Assembly (NCBI GenBank): GCA_963813815.1
Contig: CAWFAD010000010.1
Location: 96,001 to 160,000, forward strand
Reading direction: 5' to 3'
Length of the DNA: 64,000 nt
DNA from: an uncultured bacterium
GTDB taxonomy: Bacteria > Krumholzibacteriota > Krumholzibacteriia > Krumholzibacteriales > Krumholzibacteriaceae
Positions 21,001 to 27,000 of this stretch are shown here, in pieces. Each line of letters starts with the position of its first letter. The first letter of the stretch is position 1. The position numbers are program-made.

Positions 21001-24000
21001 GGCGGACGTTGATCGAGCTCCGCGGCGTCTCCTTCGCCTTCGCCGGCGGCCGCGAGATTCTGCGGTCGATCGACCTTTCGATCGAGAACGGGTCGTGGGT
21101 CGCCGTCGCCGGGGGCAACGGCTCGGGCAAGTCGACCCTCTGCCGCCTCGTCGCCGGGCTCTTCCGTCCCTCGGCGGGAACGGTCTCGGTCGACGGCGCG
21201 GATCCATCCTCCGCCGGCGCCCCGCCGGGGGTCGGCATCGCGTTCCAGAACCCCGACAGCCAGTTCGTCACCTCCAGCGTCGAGCGGGAGATCCTGTTCG
21301 GGATGGAGAATCTCGGGCTCGATCCCCGCGAGATGCGCTCGCGTCTCGACGCGATCCCGCCGGCCTTCGGTCTCGCGGATCTGCTCCGCCGCAACCCCCA
21401 CACGCTCTCGGGAGGGGAGAAACAGCGCCTGGTGCTCGCGGGTCTCTCGGCGATGGCGCCCCGGCATCTCGTGCTCGACGAGCCCTTCTCGTTTCTCGAC
21501 GAGGCGGGGAGAAGCTCGTTTCTCGAAACGCTGCGCGGATCGCTCCGCGCGGCGGCGAGGACGGTCGTCTGGTCGACGGTCGACGAGGAGGAGATCGCGC
21601 TCGCCGATCGGGTCGTTTTTCTCCACGGGGGAAGCGTCCTCTACGACGGACCGCCCGGCGCCCTCGCCTCGGCCGTGCCGGAAAGCGCGCTCGACGCGTC
21701 GCTCGTCCGGGCGAAGCGCGCGACGCCCGGCGCGCCCGGGCGCGGAAACGCCGGCGGAGCGGAGCGCCGGCAGGGGCTCGGGGCGGGAACGCCGCCCCTT
21801 CCGATAGAGATCCGCGGCGCGGAGTTCTCCTGGCCGGACGCTGCGTTTTCCCTCGCCGTCGAGGATCTTTCGATCGCGAAGGGGGAGATGACGCTCCTCA
21901 CGGGCCCCTCGGGCTCGGGAAAAACGACGCTTCTTCTCGGCTGCTCAGGCCTGCTCCCCCCGCGCTCGGGAACGGCCGCCGTGCTCGGCCGCCGCATCCG
22001 GTCCCGGCGCGACGCGCCGGTCGGACGCTTCGCCCTGCTCTTTCAGAGCCCCGAGCAGGGTTTCTTCGCCCCGACGGTTCGCGGGGAGATCGCGATCGCC
22101 CGCCGTGCCTTTCACGGCGGCGACGGGATCGACGGGGCCGTCGAGGCGGCGCTCGCCCGGACCGGTCTCGCGCCGGGGGCGTTCCTCGAGCGCAACCCGT
22201 TCGGCCTCTCACAGGGAGAGAAGCGGCTCGTGGCCTTCGCCTCGGCTCTCGTTATCGGCGCCGAGCTCGTGCTGCTCGACGAGCCCACGATCTTTCTCGA
22301 TGGGGCGGCTCGCGCGAGGCTCCGCGATCTTCTCGTGGAGCTCCGGGCCGAGGGGACGACGGTCGTCGCCGCGTCGCACGACAGGCGGTTTTTCGAGCCG
22401 ATCTGCGACCGCGTCGTCGCGCTTTCTCGTTGAAATTGCAGGGGAAAGGGAGTACACTCCCGATAGGGGACAACGAGGCCAATCCCGGTCATTGCAAGCA
22501 TTGAAAAAAGGAGGTGACGTATGAAGCGAATGCTCACGCTTTTGGTGGCGCTCCTTGCTTTCTCATCCGCGGCCTCCACGGACATTCGACCGTCGGTGGG
22601 GCTCTTCTCGGACTACAGCCATTCGGAATGCTCGGTTTTCGCGAACTTGTTCACGCCGTTCGATGCCTGGCTGTGGTGGACGCCCGGCCCGGGCGGCATC
22701 ATGGGAGTCGAATGCGCGATCGAGTGCCCGAGCAACGTGGTTTTGGTCTCCAAAACGTACCACCCGGAGCTCCAGTCCCAGCTCGTGGATTGCTGCGAAG
22801 GATTGGAGTGCAGCTGCTTCTACTCGACGTGCCACACGGACTGGGTCTACGTCTTTCGTTTGACGTTCTTGCTATTAGACAATGCTAGTTCCGTGATCGA
22901 CATCGTGCCGTATCCGCCGTCGGGAGGAATCAACGCCGCGACCTGCGAGCCGGGATATCCGATCGTTCCGGCGACTCTGATGAGCGGCCTTTATATCAAC
23001 GCGTGGTGCTTCGTCGCCGTCGAGGAGTCGACCTGGGGGGCGGTCAAGAGCCTGTACCGTTGATCGCGCGGCCGGCGTCGGCCGAAACCGCTCGGGAGGG
23101 CGCCCGCAAAGCCTTCCGGGCGGATTGAAGGGAGCGATACATGAAGCGAATGCTCACGTTTTCCGTTCTGATTGTTCTTTTCCTTTGCTCGAGCGCCGTG
23201 CCGCAGACGGCGCCGAAGCCGTACGTCGGAGTTTTCGCGGACGCTTACCACTCGGTATGCAGCGTGTATCCCCGTCTCTACTCTCAGTTCGATGCATGGA
23301 TATGGTGGCTCCCCGGGCCCGGGGGGATAAAGGGGGTCGAGTGCGCGATAGCGTATCCGAGCTACATTGTGCGCACGTCCACCACGTTCAACCCGGACCT
23401 CGACTTTATGATACCGACGTGCTGCGAGGGCGGCGTGTGCTCCTGCGTGTTCAACTCGTGCCACACGGAGTGGGTGTGGCTCATTCGCGAGACCTTCCTC
23501 TTCCTCGTCATCACGACGCCCTCATTCATCAGCGTCGTAAACCATCCGCTGTCGAACGGAGTCTACGTCGCCACGTGCGAGCCGGGGTATCCGACGGCTC
23601 CGGCGACGGTTTTTACCGCTCTCGCGATCAATCAGGAGTGCTACATCGCCGTCGAAGCGTCGACGTGGGGGGCGATCAAGAGCCTGTACCGTTGATCGCG
23701 CGCACGATGTCGGTTCAAGCCGCTCCGGAGGGCGGCCGCAGAGATTTTCGAGGGTGTTGAAGGGAGCGGCGTATGAAGTGGATGCTCACGCTTTTTGGGG
23801 CGCTGCTGGTTTTCGCCTCGTCGGCGTCCATGGCTGGGGGTCCGTATGTGGGGATCTTCGAGGGCGACGGTCATGCTGCCTGCTCCGTGTTCAGGACCAT
23901 CTGGCAGGCGTTCGATGCCTGGCTGTGGTGGTACCCGGGTCCGGGAGGTTTGAAGTCTGTAGAGTGCGCGGTCGAGTGTCCGAGCAATGTCCTGATGATC

Positions 24001-27000
24001 GCCAAGGTTTACCACCCTGATCTCCAGTTTCAGGTGGAGGATTGCTGCGAAGGATTGGAGTGCAGCTGTTCCTACCTGACGTGCCACACGGACTGGGTCT
24101 ACGTCTTTCGTTTGACGTTCTTGCTGATGAACACGGACCCTTCCTCCATCAACATCGTGCCGTATCCGCCGTCGGGAGGAGTCAACGTCGCGACGTGCGA
24201 GCCGGGATACCCGGTCGTTCCCGCGATCGTGTTCAGCAACCTCGGCATCAACCTGCCGTGCGTCATCGGCGCCGAGACGTCGACGTGGGGGGCGATCAAG
24301 GGGCTCTACCGCTAGGCGGCCCGTTTCTCGCCGCGAGAGAGGCGTTTCATTCGGGGGAGGCGACCGGTCTCCCCCGTTTTTTGTCCTCTTGCAAGCCCGC
24401 TTCCATTCGGCTATCCTCAATCCTCTTTCGCGCCCGCGGGGCGCGTCGCACTAGCGAGTATCACCGGTCGTTTCGAGGAGCGTCGGATCCGGCATGGATG
24501 GAGGGATGGACCATGAAGGCAGCAGCCCGCCTCTCTTGCATCATCCTCGCGCTCGGGCTCGTTTCATTTCTGTCGTGCTCGAAGGGCGTTGAGATGCAGT
24601 TCAAGGATTTTGTGACGGCACACGTCGCGAAGCTCGAGCCGCTCGAGAAGGAGGCGAATCTCGCCTACTGGCAGGCCGCGAACTCCGGCAAGGAGGAGGA
24701 TTATCAGCGCTATTCAGAGGCGCAGCTCAAGCTCGAGAGACTCTATACGAATGCGGAGGATTTCGCGTTCGTGAAGCGTGCGAAAGAGTCGGGAAAGCTC
24801 GCCGATCCTATTCTCCGGCGCACGGCGGAGGTTCTCTATCTGCGCTACGTCGGCAACCAGACCGATTCGCTGCTCCTCGAGCGGATACTCGATATCTCGA
24901 GCGCCGCGGAGAACAAGTTCACGGTGTACCAGCCGGTCGTCGGCGTTGATACGATCAACACGAACGAGGTGTACCGCATCCTCGGCGAGGAGCGGAGCAC
25001 CGTGAAGCGGCGGGCCACGTGGGAGGCGAGCAAGAACGTCGGGCCGCTCGTCCGCGACGATCTCATCGCGCTCGTGAAGCTCCGCAACGAGTCGGCCCGC
25101 AAGGCCGGATTCGAGGACTTCTACACGATGACCCTCACGCTCGGCGAGCAGAAAGAAGAAGATCTCATCGGCATATTCGCCGAGCTCGACGAGATGACCC
25201 GCGAGCCGTTCCTCGCGCTCAAGGCGGAGCTCGACCGCGAGCTCGCGAAATCCTACGGCGTGAAGATCGAGGACCTGCGGCCGTGGCACTACCACGATCC
25301 GTATTTTCAGGAGCTGCCGCAGGTAGGCGAGCTGGACCTCGACTCGTACTACGAAGGAAAGGACGCCGTCGAGACCGCGAAGACGTTCTTCGCGGGCGTC
25401 GGCATGCCCGTCGAGGACATCCTCGCGCGGAGCGACCTCTTCGAACGGCCGGGCAAGAATCCGCACGCCTTCTGCTCGGACATGGACCGGGCCGGGGACA
25501 TCAGGATCCTCGCCAACATGAAGAACAACGGCTACTGGATGGAGACGATCCTGCACGAGCTCGGCCACGGAACGTACGACAAGTACATCGACGGCGGCCT
25601 TCCGTTCCTCCTGCGGAGCTATCCGTCGAGCTGCCTCACCGAGGCGGCCGCCGAGTTCTTCGGGCGGCTGTCGCAGGATCCGGCGTGGATGAAGGCGGCG
25701 CTCGGCATTCCGGACGAGGAGATCGCGAAGATCACGCCCGCGATCGAGCGCTCGCTTCGACTCAAGCAGCTCATCTTCTCGCGGTGGAGCCAGGTGATGT
25801 TCCACTTCGAGCGCAGCCTCTACCGCGATCCGGATCAGGATCTCAACAAGCTCTGGTGGGATCTCGTCGAGCGCTACCAGTACGTGAAGCGTCCCGAGGG
25901 CCGCGACATGCCGGATTGGGCGACGAAGATCCACATGGTCATGAGCCCGGTGTACTACCACAACTACATGCTCGGCGAGCTCGTCGCCTCGCAGGTCCAC
26001 CACCACGTGTACGCCGAGGTGCTGAAGGACGGGGCGGCGGGCGGCGTGTACGGCAATCCCGCGGTGGGCGCGTGGTTCCGCGAGACGTACTACAAACCGG
26101 GTAACGTCGCTCCCTGGAACGCGCACATCGAGGCCGCGACGGGCGAGCCGCTCACCGCGCGGTACTTCGTCGAGCAGTTCGCCAGGGCCGGCATTTGATC
26201 TGGCTCGTACCGGCAGCGCTCTGCTCCATAACGATCGCCCTCATCCTCAAGATCAACGAGGGGAGGGGCGGAAACCGCATACTGATCGCCGGGGCGAACT
26301 ATCTCGTCGCCTCGGCGATCTCGTTTCTCATGATCGGGGGGCTTCCCCCGGCGCCGGGGGCGGCGACGCTGGCGCTCGGCGCCGTCTCGGGCGCCGTCTA
26401 CGTGCTCGGCTTTCTCGTTCTCATGACGGCGATCGCGCGCGGCCCGCTCGCCGTGCCGGTCACCGTCGCCCGCCTCTCGGTCGTTATCCCCGTCGTCGTC
26501 TCGATCGCGGTCTGGCGCGAGGCGCCCGGAGCGGCGCAGTGGGCGGGGATCGTTCTCGGCCTCGGGGCGATCGTGCTCTTCGGCTTCGGCATCTCGCCGG
26601 GAAAGGGACGGGCCGGTCTCGGCTACGGCTGGCTCATGATTGCGCTCTTTCTCGTGCTCGGAACCGGGGACGTCCTGCTGAAGGCCTTTCGGGAAACGTC
26701 CGGCGGGCGCGACCGGCTCGTTTTCACGTGGATTCTCTTCACGTCGGCCGCCCTCCTCACGTGGATCGTCATCGCGGCGCGGCGCATTCGCTTCGATGCG
26801 CGAACCTTCGCCCTCGGCCTGCTCCTCGGCGTCCCGAACCTCTTCAGCACCGTTTTTACGCTGCTCGCGCTCCGCTCGGTGGACGCCTCCGTCGCGTTTC
26901 CTCTCATCAACCTCGCGGTCATCGCCGGCACGACCGCCCTCGGGCTCGCCGTCTGGCGCGAGAGGATCGGACGGCTCGGCCTCGCCGCCCTCTTCCTCGC

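Follow-up and report, generated by a model that had tools for sequence, protein, structure and literature searches.

Many unrelated exported proteins in several uncultured phyla end in a tail of about 16 residues, which probably serves as an address or anchoring label not described before. The tail exists, is portable and is strictly C-terminal. Three of its carriers (Table 1) lie in the window, that is, the whole 64,000-nucleotide stretch of contig CAWFAD010000010.1 analysed here, from an uncultured bacterium of the Krumholzibacteriota. These three genes, ORF1 to ORF3, are tandem paralogues on the forward strand with the C-termini ..CFVAVEESTWGAVKSLYR, ..CYIAVEASTWGAIKSLYR and ..CVIGAETSTWGAIKGLYR, and share the ending ..[ST]-W-G-A-[IV]-K-x-L-Y-R-stop. 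A genome-wide survey's note had read the ending as a sorting or processing tag; that reading, inferred from position, portability and context, is partly supported by the present analysis.

Table 1. Features of the window around the tailed genes
Feature	Position	Strand	Basis
ORF1, 180 aa, comprising a signal peptide, a beta-sandwich with the cohesin fold (residues ~21-161), a linker and the C-terminal tail	22521..23063	+	ORF call, AlphaFold2 model, Foldseek, VIA-align
ORF2, 184 aa, ORF1 paralogue (53% identity), same tail	23141..23695	+	ORF call, sequence comparison
ORF3, 180 aa, ORF1 paralogue (64% identity), same tail	23773..24315	+	ORF call, sequence comparison
ORF1 tail, last 16 codons, ..VAVEESTWGAVKSLYR	23013..23060	+	translation
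ORF2 tail, last 16 codons, ..IAVEASTWGAIKSLYR	23645..23692	+	translation
ORF3 tail, last 16 codons, ..IGAETSTWGAIKGLYR	24265..24312	+	translation
Promoter-like consensus match 5' of ORF1 (not significant, since 1 site was found and 0.6 expected)	22430..22458	+	pattern match only
Terminator-like G+C-rich hairpin followed by a T run, 3' of ORF3	24352..24376	+	pattern match only

A strictly C-terminal tail

In the six-frame translation of the whole genome (5,062,102 residues), the core [ST]W[GS]x[IV]Kxx[FYM] has 23 matches, against 0.09 expected by composition. All 23 sit 0 to 3 residues ahead of a stop, as the survey's note had held. As a control, 30 motifs with permuted position order were run on the same translation; they gave 0-2 matches each and 9 altogether, one of which was near a stop. 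In public genomes, exact matches to a DNA pattern of the tail are followed by a true stop in 121 of 121 cases and by TGG in none, even though the pattern allowed TGG too. A library of 1.84 billion proteins has the tail on 1045 cluster representatives, and in 146 of the best 150 of these matches it lies at most 4 residues from the C-terminus.

The consensus is usually a Cys, an acidic linker of 5-8 residues and then [ST]-W-G-x-[IV]-K-x-[LM]-[YF]-[RK]. Across 102 tails from 44 families and several phyla, the Trp and the Lys are invariant and the Gly, Ala and Ile are at least 90% conserved. Within this genome, an aromatic residue followed by Arg or Lys ends 17 of the 23 tails. A Cys stands 9-11 residues ahead of the Trp in 16 of the 22 intact carriers, so it is usual, as claimed earlier, with the count corrected from 16 of 21. 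The residues after the Lys vary in number (..SLF, ..SMYSE, ..SLINN, ..SMME), and one library protein has a second copy of the tail directly after its signal peptide, besides the C-terminal one. No Pfam or NCBIfam model matched the tail in the three window proteins (E<=10) or in 19 other carriers (E<=0.1), in agreement with the note, and our literature search found no paper describing it.

The strictly C-terminal position would suit a tag by which a protease of C-terminal processing or quality control recognises exported proteins and controls their turnover. For PDZ-type reading of such a tag, the terminal residues and the free carboxylate are decisive. Here, however, the final 2-5 residues differ in both sequence and number and the conserved core lies further inside; it would also be odd for dozens of conserved families to encode a degradation tag. 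We consider this reading extremely improbable.

Carrier proteins and their structure

Of the 23 genomic matches, 22 are full ORFs with a signal-peptide-like N-terminus, called by an in-house heuristic rather than SignalP. The signal peptides claimed by the survey's note are thus found on all 22 intact carriers, whereas one of its 23 tagged gene ends, C9:18776(-), proved to be the end of a frameshifted pseudogene copy. The carriers are indeed unrelated, although we count 9 BLAST families among the 22 intact ones instead of ten; 98 unique tail proteins form 44 single-linkage families. A Pfam scan of 79 carriers gave beta-helix/NosD/pectate-lyase types in 16, LTD, CHRD and NHL in 2 each, X25+CBM20 and a plastocyanin-like domain in 1 each, and no domain in 48.

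ORF1 to ORF3 belong to the most frequent carrier family, that of small proteins with the cohesin fold, whose bodies are 19-64% identical, yet whose tail W, G, A and K are invariant. The AlphaFold2 model of ORF1 has a mean pLDDT of 84.3, with the body (25-159) mostly above 90. Its top Foldseek matches in the PDB are all cohesins (E 1e-5), as are the 16 top chains in VIA-align (Z 10.8-13.6). Both lists contain the ScaE type III cohesin of Ruminococcus flavefaciens (PDB 2zf9). ScaE carries a C-terminal sortase signal, and the tail of the window proteins stands in its place. As in cohesin-dockerin systems, genes of the window type belong to a module with a protein ending in a dockerin-type segment. 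Unlike in those systems, the Pfam models Cohesin (E<=0.1) and Dockerin_1 (E<=0.01) match nowhere in the genome, and the host is of Gram-negative type with a type IX secretion system (T9SS).

In the models, the tail is outside the fold of its carriers, a short amphipathic helix hanging after the last structural Cys. The helix of ORF1 (171-179) has low pLDDT, and a second AlphaFold2 model, of poor quality, has the same low-pLDDT terminal helix. The hydrophobic moment of the tail is 0.54 as a helix versus 0.34 as a strand. It includes no membrane helix, which bears out the survey's note. A C-terminal amphipathic helix of this kind could bind membrane or lipopolysaccharide and anchor periplasmic or surface proteins with no protein to read it, in the manner of PBP5 and its C-terminal helix. 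The predicted helix has only about 10 residues, however, and a mean hydrophobicity near 0, and lipid-binding helices tolerate far more variation than is seen among the 102 tails. Lipid binding would also leave the tight gene-order link to a peptidase (see below) unexplained, and appears very unlikely.

A somewhat stronger, though still rather doubtful, alternative is that the tail is a non-covalent, uncleaved dockerin-like plug, whose short helix would bind a surface or periplasmic receptor (such as a protein with the cohesin fold or a PorV-like barrel) and tether many small proteins to one scaffold. A predicted amphipathic helix on a flexible linker is consistent with this. The variable distance from the Lys to the C-terminus and the second copy after a signal peptide are more in keeping with a docking peptide than with a signal of sortase type. 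Moreover, the commonest carriers are cohesin-fold proteins, one of their paralogues is anchored by a T9SS C-terminal domain and could serve as the base, and the same module encodes the dockerin-type protein. However, no receptor emerged, and cohesin-like receptors would themselves bear the plug, which is hard to explain. The monomer model of ORF1 shows no packing of the tail against the body, and in a Calditrichaceae-labelled group the tail occurs on a single fibronectin-like protein with no cohesin-like partner in the 2.4-kb loci.

Relation to type IX secretion

Among paralogues, the tail swaps with the T9SS C-terminal domain (CTD). A 470-aa protein contains the cohesin-like body again (E 1e-8 to 1e-19), with further domains and a type A CTD after the same ..LNC position, and a beta-helix body recurs in a 1541-aa CTD protein. 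The T9SS parts of the genome include SprA, a true PorU (543 bits, cut-off 420) and an adjoining PorV-like barrel; there are 42 CTD matches and five PorV-like barrels in all. CTDs were found in five and SprA in four of five other tag-bearing genomes, and T9SS cargo is present in all six tag-bearing genomes examined for it.

The tail resembles the type A CTD (TIGR04183 / PF18962, FlgD_ig-like, including the 'short' CTDs of Prevotella intermedia described in PMC11969387) in several respects. Both occupy the extreme C-terminus of signal-peptide proteins in FCB-type bacteria, are portable between unrelated passengers and take the same place in paralogues. Near the end of each stands a conserved basic residue, and both terminate hydrophobic-hydrophobic-basic (hydrophobic-hydrophobic-R in 32 of 35 CTDs of this genome); a PorU-type C25 peptidase is encoded beside some tail substrates. 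In contrast to the CTD, the tail has about 16 residues rather than 40-100, is a predicted helix instead of the 3- to 7-stranded sheet described in PMC11969387, lacks motifs B and D and any HMM match, and is not reported in Bacteroidota. It also marks much smaller proteins (median 199.5 aa versus 839-aa open frames for CTD cargo), which therefore may use a different route; we count this against our preferred explanation, given below, as we do the absence of motifs B and D and of a beta-sheet, which even the shortest CTDs described in PMC11969387 retain.

The tail might instead be a stripped-down T9SS export signal, with the SprA/PorV translocon itself reading it and carrying small proteins over the outer membrane without a dedicated step by the peptidase PorU2 (see below). 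Besides the swaps, the T9SS cargo and the five barrels, this is suggested by the hydrophobic-hydrophobic-[RK] end and the invariant Lys, which resemble motif E of type A CTDs; in those CTDs, a Lys near the C-terminus is almost invariant, matters for function and contacts PorV (PMC10994853). A further point in favor is that the Prevotella CTDs described in PMC11969387 shrink to three strands. On the other side, TIGR04183 matches 0 of 22 tagged proteins, and the tail has no Gly-x-Tyr motif and no predicted beta-strand. According to the structural work in PMC10994853, the translocon recognises CTD fold and shape, which a 10-residue helix cannot mimic. T9SS is also insufficient for the tag, as five Bacteroidota genomes were without a match in the earlier survey. 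Overall, this reading seems distinctly unlikely.

PorU2 and gene order

We use the name PorU2 for a divergent PorU paralogue, which is a C25 cysteine peptidase, itself bears a T9SS C-terminal domain and aligns with PorU over the full length at 24% identity. Its catalytic His906 and Cys942 are kept in 22 of 22 orthologues, and homologues are present in 40 of 41 sampled genomes. Upstream of PorU2, within 1.5 kb and on the same strand, 19 of 30 loci have one or two tail-ending ORFs; on the opposite strand there are none (0/30). All 20 loci with up to 5.5 kb of upstream sequence contain 2-5 cohesin-like genes each, 59 in total; the tail is W-G-x-[IVL]-K in 55 of these genes and the variant F-G-G-V-K in 2. 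In 18 of the loci they are preceded by a dockerin-type gene; the remaining two loci are cut by contig ends. The module order is thus a dockerin-type gene, tailed cohesin-like genes and, directly downstream, PorU2.

The link by gene order to a PorU-like peptidase proposed in the survey's note is therefore much stronger than first described. Its statement that carriers have no conserved neighbour holds for the dispersed ones but fails for the cohesin-like family, the one carrier family with the gene-order link. The association may reflect the cohesin/dockerin/PorU2 module rather than the tail as such. A genome with 97% completeness (G010) has 27 tail matches, yet no PorU2 match at E<=1e-40. Full-length PorU2-like genes are present in each of three genomes examined from a second phylum-level group; two of these lack any tailed gene in the 5.5 kb upstream, and the other has a single tail-ending ORF 1.6 kb away. 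In a third group, the PorU2 query had no match at E<=1e-20. Two loose proximities of C25 genes and tails there may be due to chance, because these genomes hold 15-21 C25 genes each.

The sorting systems LPXTG/sortase, PEP-CTERM/exosortase and GlyGly-CTERM/rhombosortase (see PMC1569441) provide a second parallel: a short C-terminal signature on many unrelated exported proteins of one lineage. The tail likewise has 1 to 44 copies per genome and a candidate processing enzyme encoded beside a subset of substrates. Unlike these tripartite signals, it lacks both a hydrophobic transmembrane helix and a cluster of basic residues after the motif, and the candidate enzyme is a C25 peptidase; no partner of sortase, exosortase or rhombosortase type turned up, although no search was aimed at one.

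Distribution and proposed function

The tail HMM has matches in 61 of 61 Krumholzibacteriota genomes (60 sampled plus this one), 2-44 per genome, as expected from the survey's note, which had the tag in every genome of the phylum. A restriction to this phylum, as supposed in the note, is not confirmed: three further phylum-level groups have the tag in 22/26, 28/31 and 15/26 genomes. It is frequent in at least two of the other groups, and in a third it is carried by one conserved protein. In another phylum-level group, taken as a negative control, 25 of 26 genomes had no tail match.

We tentatively favor the view, at somewhat less than even confidence, that the tail is a T9SS-linked C-terminal sorting or attachment signal, possibly read by PorU2; every functional step is inferred. 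In uncultured FCB-type phyla with a T9SS, it would serve as a portable C-terminal signal on proteins exported by Sec, and its reader would be some cell-envelope protein. The best candidate is PorU2, given that its catalytic His and Cys are intact and that its gene immediately follows tailed cohesin-like genes across the phylum. PorU2 would either cleave the tail or dock onto it, by which the cargo would be fixed at the cell surface. Passage across the outer membrane could use the T9SS translocon or a PorV-like shuttle. The window proteins themselves are probably surface docking modules, and their partner would be the dockerin-type protein of the conserved module.

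The C-terminal tail and its carriers

The core of the tail, [ST]W[GS]x[IV]Kxx[FYM], has 23 matches in the six-frame translation of this 2.53-Mb genome (5.06 million residues), and all of them lie 0-3 residues ahead of a stop codon. Only 0.09 matches are expected from residue composition, and 30 control motifs in which the same position classes were permuted gave 0-2 matches each. The tail is not a product of chance. At 22 of the 23 sites the tail terminates a full ORF, of 180-336 aa; all 22 products have a signal-peptide-like start of the Sec type, with a basic N-terminus and a subsequent hydrophobic stretch, as judged by our own heuristic and not by SignalP. 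At the 23rd site (C9:18776, on contig 9), the tail closes a frameshifted version of the adjoining cohesin-like gene. The 5′ part of this copy shares its reading frame with PorU2, a divergent PorU paralogue described below, and its tail is in another frame; the copy is a pseudogene or results from misassembly.

After removal of the last 20 residues, the bodies of the 22 proteins fall into nine BLASTP families. Pfam recognizes a beta-helix/NosD domain in three carriers, LTD in one and nothing above threshold in the others. Neither Pfam nor NCBIfam has a model that covers the tail itself (E<=10 for the three window proteins, E<=0.1 for the 19 other tagged proteins). A Cys is present 9-11 residues ahead of the Trp in 16 of the 22. 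The Lys of the tail, 4-6 residues from the end, is invariant, and only 2-7 residues follow it. When carriers from other genomes are included, single-linkage clustering sorts 98 unique tail proteins into 44 families. Among the unique carriers in the set of loci L021-L100, 79 of 81 were scanned with Pfam (two fragments were left out). The scan returned beta-helix/NosD/pectate-lyase types in 16, LTD, CHRD and NHL propellers in two each, a pullulanase X25 plus CBM20 pair in one and a plastocyanin-like domain in one; 7 had sub-threshold matches and 48 no match. Such domain types (beta-helix, LTD and others) bear surface-sorting signals elsewhere.

Features of contigs 9 and 10 considered in the analysis
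Feature	Position	Strand	Remarks
ORF1	window 22521-23063	+	180 aa, tailed
ORF2	window 23141-23695	+	184 aa, tailed
ORF3	window 23773-24315	+	180 aa, tailed
M2/M3-type zinc peptidase gene	window 24498-26195	+	H-E-L-G-H; lipoprotein-like N-terminus; directly 3′ of ORF3
Ordinary T9SS type A CTD	window 61033-61239 (contig 10, 157033-157239)	+	ends a 792-aa open frame
PorU2	contig 9, 14536-18660	-	C25 peptidase, 1374 aa; beside tagged cohesin-like gene
Frameshifted cohesin-like copy	contig 9, ~18776-19317	-	69% identity over 106 residues to neighbour gene
Dockerin-type protein (locus L150)	contig 9, 20268-20933	-	221 aa, secreted, Cys-rich; outside the window

The cohesin-like proteins of the window

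ORF1, ORF2 and ORF3 are arranged head to tail, with ORF1 53% identical to ORF2 and 64% identical to ORF3. Each has a signal-peptide-like N-terminus, and all three C-termini follow the pattern ..C-x-[IV]-[AG]-[AV]-E-x-S-T-W-G-A-[IV]-K-[SG]-L-Y-R-stop. The flanking genes, encoding a two-domain ABC ATPase on the 5′ side and the M2/M3-type peptidase and an EamA-type transporter on the 3′ side, have no evident connection to them. The stop-to-stop frame of the peptidase reaches a long way in the 5′ direction, overlapping ORF3. ORF1-ORF3 have no Pfam or NCBIfam match at E<=10 other than one chance-level row, and a word-indexed homologue search with ORF1 returned only its paralogues ORF2 and ORF3. An RNA-library contig of 162 bases maps to window 24126-24287, with at most 26% of words in any run; this is not evidence of transcription. 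A metagenome contig (run X2, ~93% alike) joins window 22807 to 24055, omitting 1247 bases. The tandem array of a relative therefore has ORF1 and ORF3 fused into one gene and is a copy-number variant.

An AlphaFold2 model of ORF1, built with 16 family members in the alignment, has a mean pLDDT of 84.3, and its beta-sandwich (residues 25-159) is mostly above 90. The best Foldseek matches of this model in the PDB are all cohesins (E down to 1e-5, query-normalised TM 0.45-0.56). VIA-align, which is independent of Foldseek, likewise placed cohesins in the top 16 chains (Z 10.8-13.6, rmsd 2.2-3.4 over 117-135 residues). The window proteins are therefore predicted to adopt the nine-stranded jelly-roll beta-sandwich of cohesins. 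The Pfam Cohesin model (PF00963) has no match in ORF1-ORF3 at E<=10 and none in the whole genome at E<=0.1; in a related Atlas cluster it is found on 16% of the members.

In the ORF1 model, the tail forms a helix (171-179) after a linker, with pLDDT down to 49, and lies outside the fold. The same terminal helix appears in the model of a second carrier family (8 sequences), which is poor (mean pLDDT 54.1) and was used for the terminal helix only. The cohesin-like family has eight members in this genome. Across the family, identity between the bodies is 19-64%, whereas the tail keeps its W, G, A and K without exception; therefore, the tail is under stronger constraint than its carrier domain. 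Two conceivable roles of such a terminal segment, a lipid-binding helix and a tag for proteases, both fit poorly with the invariant W-G-x-I-K core.

Comparison with known C-terminal signals

In signals of the LPXTG, PEP-CTERM and GlyGly-CTERM kind, a hydrophobic transmembrane helix and a basic cluster come after the signature motif, whereas the tail has no hydrophobic stretch; NCBIfam models of this kind have no match in the tagged proteins. A dockerin contains two calcium-binding EF-hand-like repeats of ~22 residues each, whereas the tail is one 10-residue segment with no D-x-N-x-D loop. These defining features of a dockerin are absent from the tail, and PF00404 has no match in the genome.

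The tag occurs in genomes encoding the type IX secretion (T9SS) machinery. This genome carries SprA (462 bits), a true PorU (543 bits) whose gene is directly followed by that of a PorV-like barrel, and four further PorV-like barrels. The five barrels are at C13:3881, C6:90180, C7:131298, C12:212911 and C12:155451. Among five other tag-bearing genomes, SprA was found in four and type A C-terminal domains (CTDs) in all five. The type A CTD model TIGR04183 has 42 matches in this genome, on open frames with a median of 839 aa, compared with a median of 199.5 aa for the tagged proteins. It has no match in the three window proteins (E<=10) or in the 19 other tagged proteins (E<=0.1), and no CTD was found in any tagged protein of this genome. 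The same passengers are found with either the tail or a CTD. First, a cohesin-like body also occurs in a 470-aa protein (C8:100736-102148, on contig 8), which continues past the conserved ..LNC position with further domains and a CTD. Second, the beta-helix body is also present in a 1541-aa CTD protein. A hydrophobic-hydrophobic-Arg end is seen in 32 of 35 CTDs of this genome, and an aromatic-[RK] end in 17 of its 23 tails.

A type A CTD (TIGR04183 / PF18962) is a folded domain of ~40-100 residues, either a beta-sandwich or a sheet of at least three strands, whereas the tail has ~16 residues and is modelled as a helix. Of the CTD motifs B, D (G-x-Y) and E (Lys/Arg), the tail has only the motif-E-like invariant Lys. 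In the translocon structures, PorV is contacted by the near-invariant and functionally important Lys that type A CTDs have near their C-terminus, and the role of this Lys is said to be elsewhere in transport (PMC10994853). The shortest CTDs on record, those of Prevotella intermedia, retain a three-stranded sheet and motifs B, D and E (PMC11969387). Since the tail has neither the sheet nor motifs B and D of these shortest CTDs, nor a TIGR04183 match, it is not a member of the CTD family.

PorU2 and the conserved gene module

PorU2 and the true PorU can be aligned from end to end, with 24% identity. PorU2 scores 163 bits with the PorU model, below the cut-off of 420, and has a CTD of its own. 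Homologues are present in 40 of 41 sampled genomes of this phylum (Krumholzibacteriota), and His906 and Cys942 are invariant in 22 orthologues. In 19 of 30 loci, the 1.5 kb upstream of PorU2 contain one or two ORFs that end in the tail, all on the PorU2 strand; the opposite strand has none in any locus. When up to 5.5 kb upstream is considered, 2-5 cohesin-like genes are found in each of 20 genomes, 59 in total; 55 of them have W-G-x-[IVL]-K tails and two an F-G-G-V-K variant. The tails of this module vary after K-x-[LM] (..SLF, ..SMYSE, ..SLINN, ..SMME); therefore, the core need not lie at a set distance from the free carboxylate. The PorU2 orthologues near this genome (among loci L152-L180) end in ..G-K-x-V-K-L-E, unlike the ..L-L-R of most T9SS domains here, and thus the C-terminal domain of PorU2 itself may be read differently.

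The 221-aa protein on contig 9 ends in a single dockerin-type segment (D-x-N-x-D..V-N-x-x-D-F). A homologue precedes the cohesin-like genes in 18 of 20 loci, and the other two are cut by contig ends. The corresponding regular expression has only one match in this genome, and the Pfam model Dockerin_1 (PF00404) has none at E<=0.01, this protein included.

Dedicated sortases are encoded beside some of their substrates. By analogy, the gene-order link points to PorU2 as a candidate reader of the tail. The link is limited to the cohesin-like carrier family and may instead reflect a cohesin/dockerin/PorU2 assembly.

One further complete genome, from outside the phylum, also has the module. Three 'Eisenbacteria'-labelled genomes have full-length PorU2-like genes, but the module was absent from the upstream regions; in one of the three, a lone tail-ending ORF lies 1.6 kb from the PorU2-like gene. 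PorU2 as a single query had no match at E<=1e-20 in 31 genomes of the 'Aegiribacteria' group, a negative that is itself uninformative. Also in that group, two tail genes lie close to C25 genes; they were not counted, as one or two genes lie between and each genome has 15-21 C25 genes. Five genomes of the group (G064, G106, G118, G123 and G125; 2.4-3.0 Mb) have 15-21 Peptidase_C25 matches each, an unusually large expansion.

Distribution of the tail

Group counts were obtained with an HMM built from the 23 tails of this genome (alignment A1), with the 'Gemmatimonadota'-labelled group as the negative control. The groups outside this phylum are named after the label of one member genome.

Occurrence of the tail in groups of genomes
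Group	Genomes with tail	Matches per genome	Threshold
This phylum	61/61	2-44	E<=0.01
'Eisenbacteria'-labelled	22/26, including the unpublished genome G205 (21/25 without it)	1-21	E<=0.001
'Aegiribacteria'-labelled	28/31	1-8	E<=0.01
'Calditrichaceae'-labelled	15/26	exactly 1	E<=0.01
'Gemmatimonadota'-labelled	1/26	1	E<=0.01

The match in the control group is in the seed genome, on a short contig. All six sites inspected in the 'Aegiribacteria' group end ORFs of ~200 aa. In the 'Calditrichaceae' group, the sole carrier is a conserved protein of ~135 aa (132-133 aa in loci L030 and L075), fibronectin-like by eye. In two of the three loci of this group with flanks, the gene behind the tailed one encodes an outer-membrane-barrel-like protein of ~205 aa. 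This protein has no Pfam match, and tblastn in the present genome gave nothing below E=4.7; it was dropped as a general tail reader since it has no homologue here.

When S-W-G-A-I-K-x-[LIM]-[YF]-x-stop was searched as a degenerate DNA pattern, at least 119 stretches in a species-genome collection matched. In all 121 pattern matches listed, the tail is followed by TAA, TAG or TGA, and in none by TGG, which the pattern also permitted. Genomes labelled Fibrobacteraceae and Latescibacteria (38 and 40 matches) group with this phylum. These two were rejected as additional host phyla, because the searches in question returned the same genomes as those for this phylum. In a 1.1-Mb genome labelled 'Patescibacteria group', four tails occur together with three T9SS domains. 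All three labels conflict with the phylum grouping or the gene content; the labels of public genomes are unreliable and give no guide to the range of the tag.

A profile of 102 tails (alignment A3) matched 1045 cluster representatives at E<=0.001 in a library of 1.84 billion. Among the best 150 of these 1045, the match ends at most four residues from the C-terminus in 146. Of the four exceptions, one reads through into the tandem gene that follows and two extend 9-17 residues further; the fourth is P0010, a library representative of 243 aa with one motif copy right after the signal peptide and another at the C-terminus, the sole two-copy case among the best 150. This N-terminal copy and the variable end behind the Lys agree with a non-covalent docking peptide at least as well as with a tail read by PorU2.

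Possible function of the tail

The tail is best explained as a label for sorting, attachment or docking because of its position, its portability among carriers, its conservation beyond that of the carrier, its exchange with the CTD and its restriction to genomes with T9SS cargo. We class the tag among the C-terminal protein-sorting tags. With ~16 residues, it is far shorter than any described T9SS signal. In a literature search that covered journals other than subscription titles, no paper was found that mentions the tag or its motif strings in a relevant context.

A more specific reading, which we regard as possible rather than probable, is that the tail is the address label of a hitherto unrecognised second branch of T9SS secretion and attachment. 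A dedicated PorU paralogue would read the ~16 residues, and small proteins would be fixed at the surface in at least four uncultured phyla. These proteins would include cohesin-fold modules that form a docking system with a dockerin-type partner in Gram-negative-type bacteria.

At least 1045 public protein clusters bear a tag that is invisible to current annotation. In several uncultured phyla, each genome likewise encodes dozens of exported proteins with the tag. The predicted secretomes and surface proteomes of these phyla are therefore incomplete. The tag is easily modelled as a short HMM and could enter annotation pipelines at once. For surface display, a label as short as 10-16 residues would be practically useful, provided that it is enough for sorting or anchoring. 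Should the tag prove to be a sorting signal, its reader would define a new envelope-sorting step and possibly a new use of the PorU family, and the presence of several PorU- and PorV-like paralogues in these genomes would be explained.
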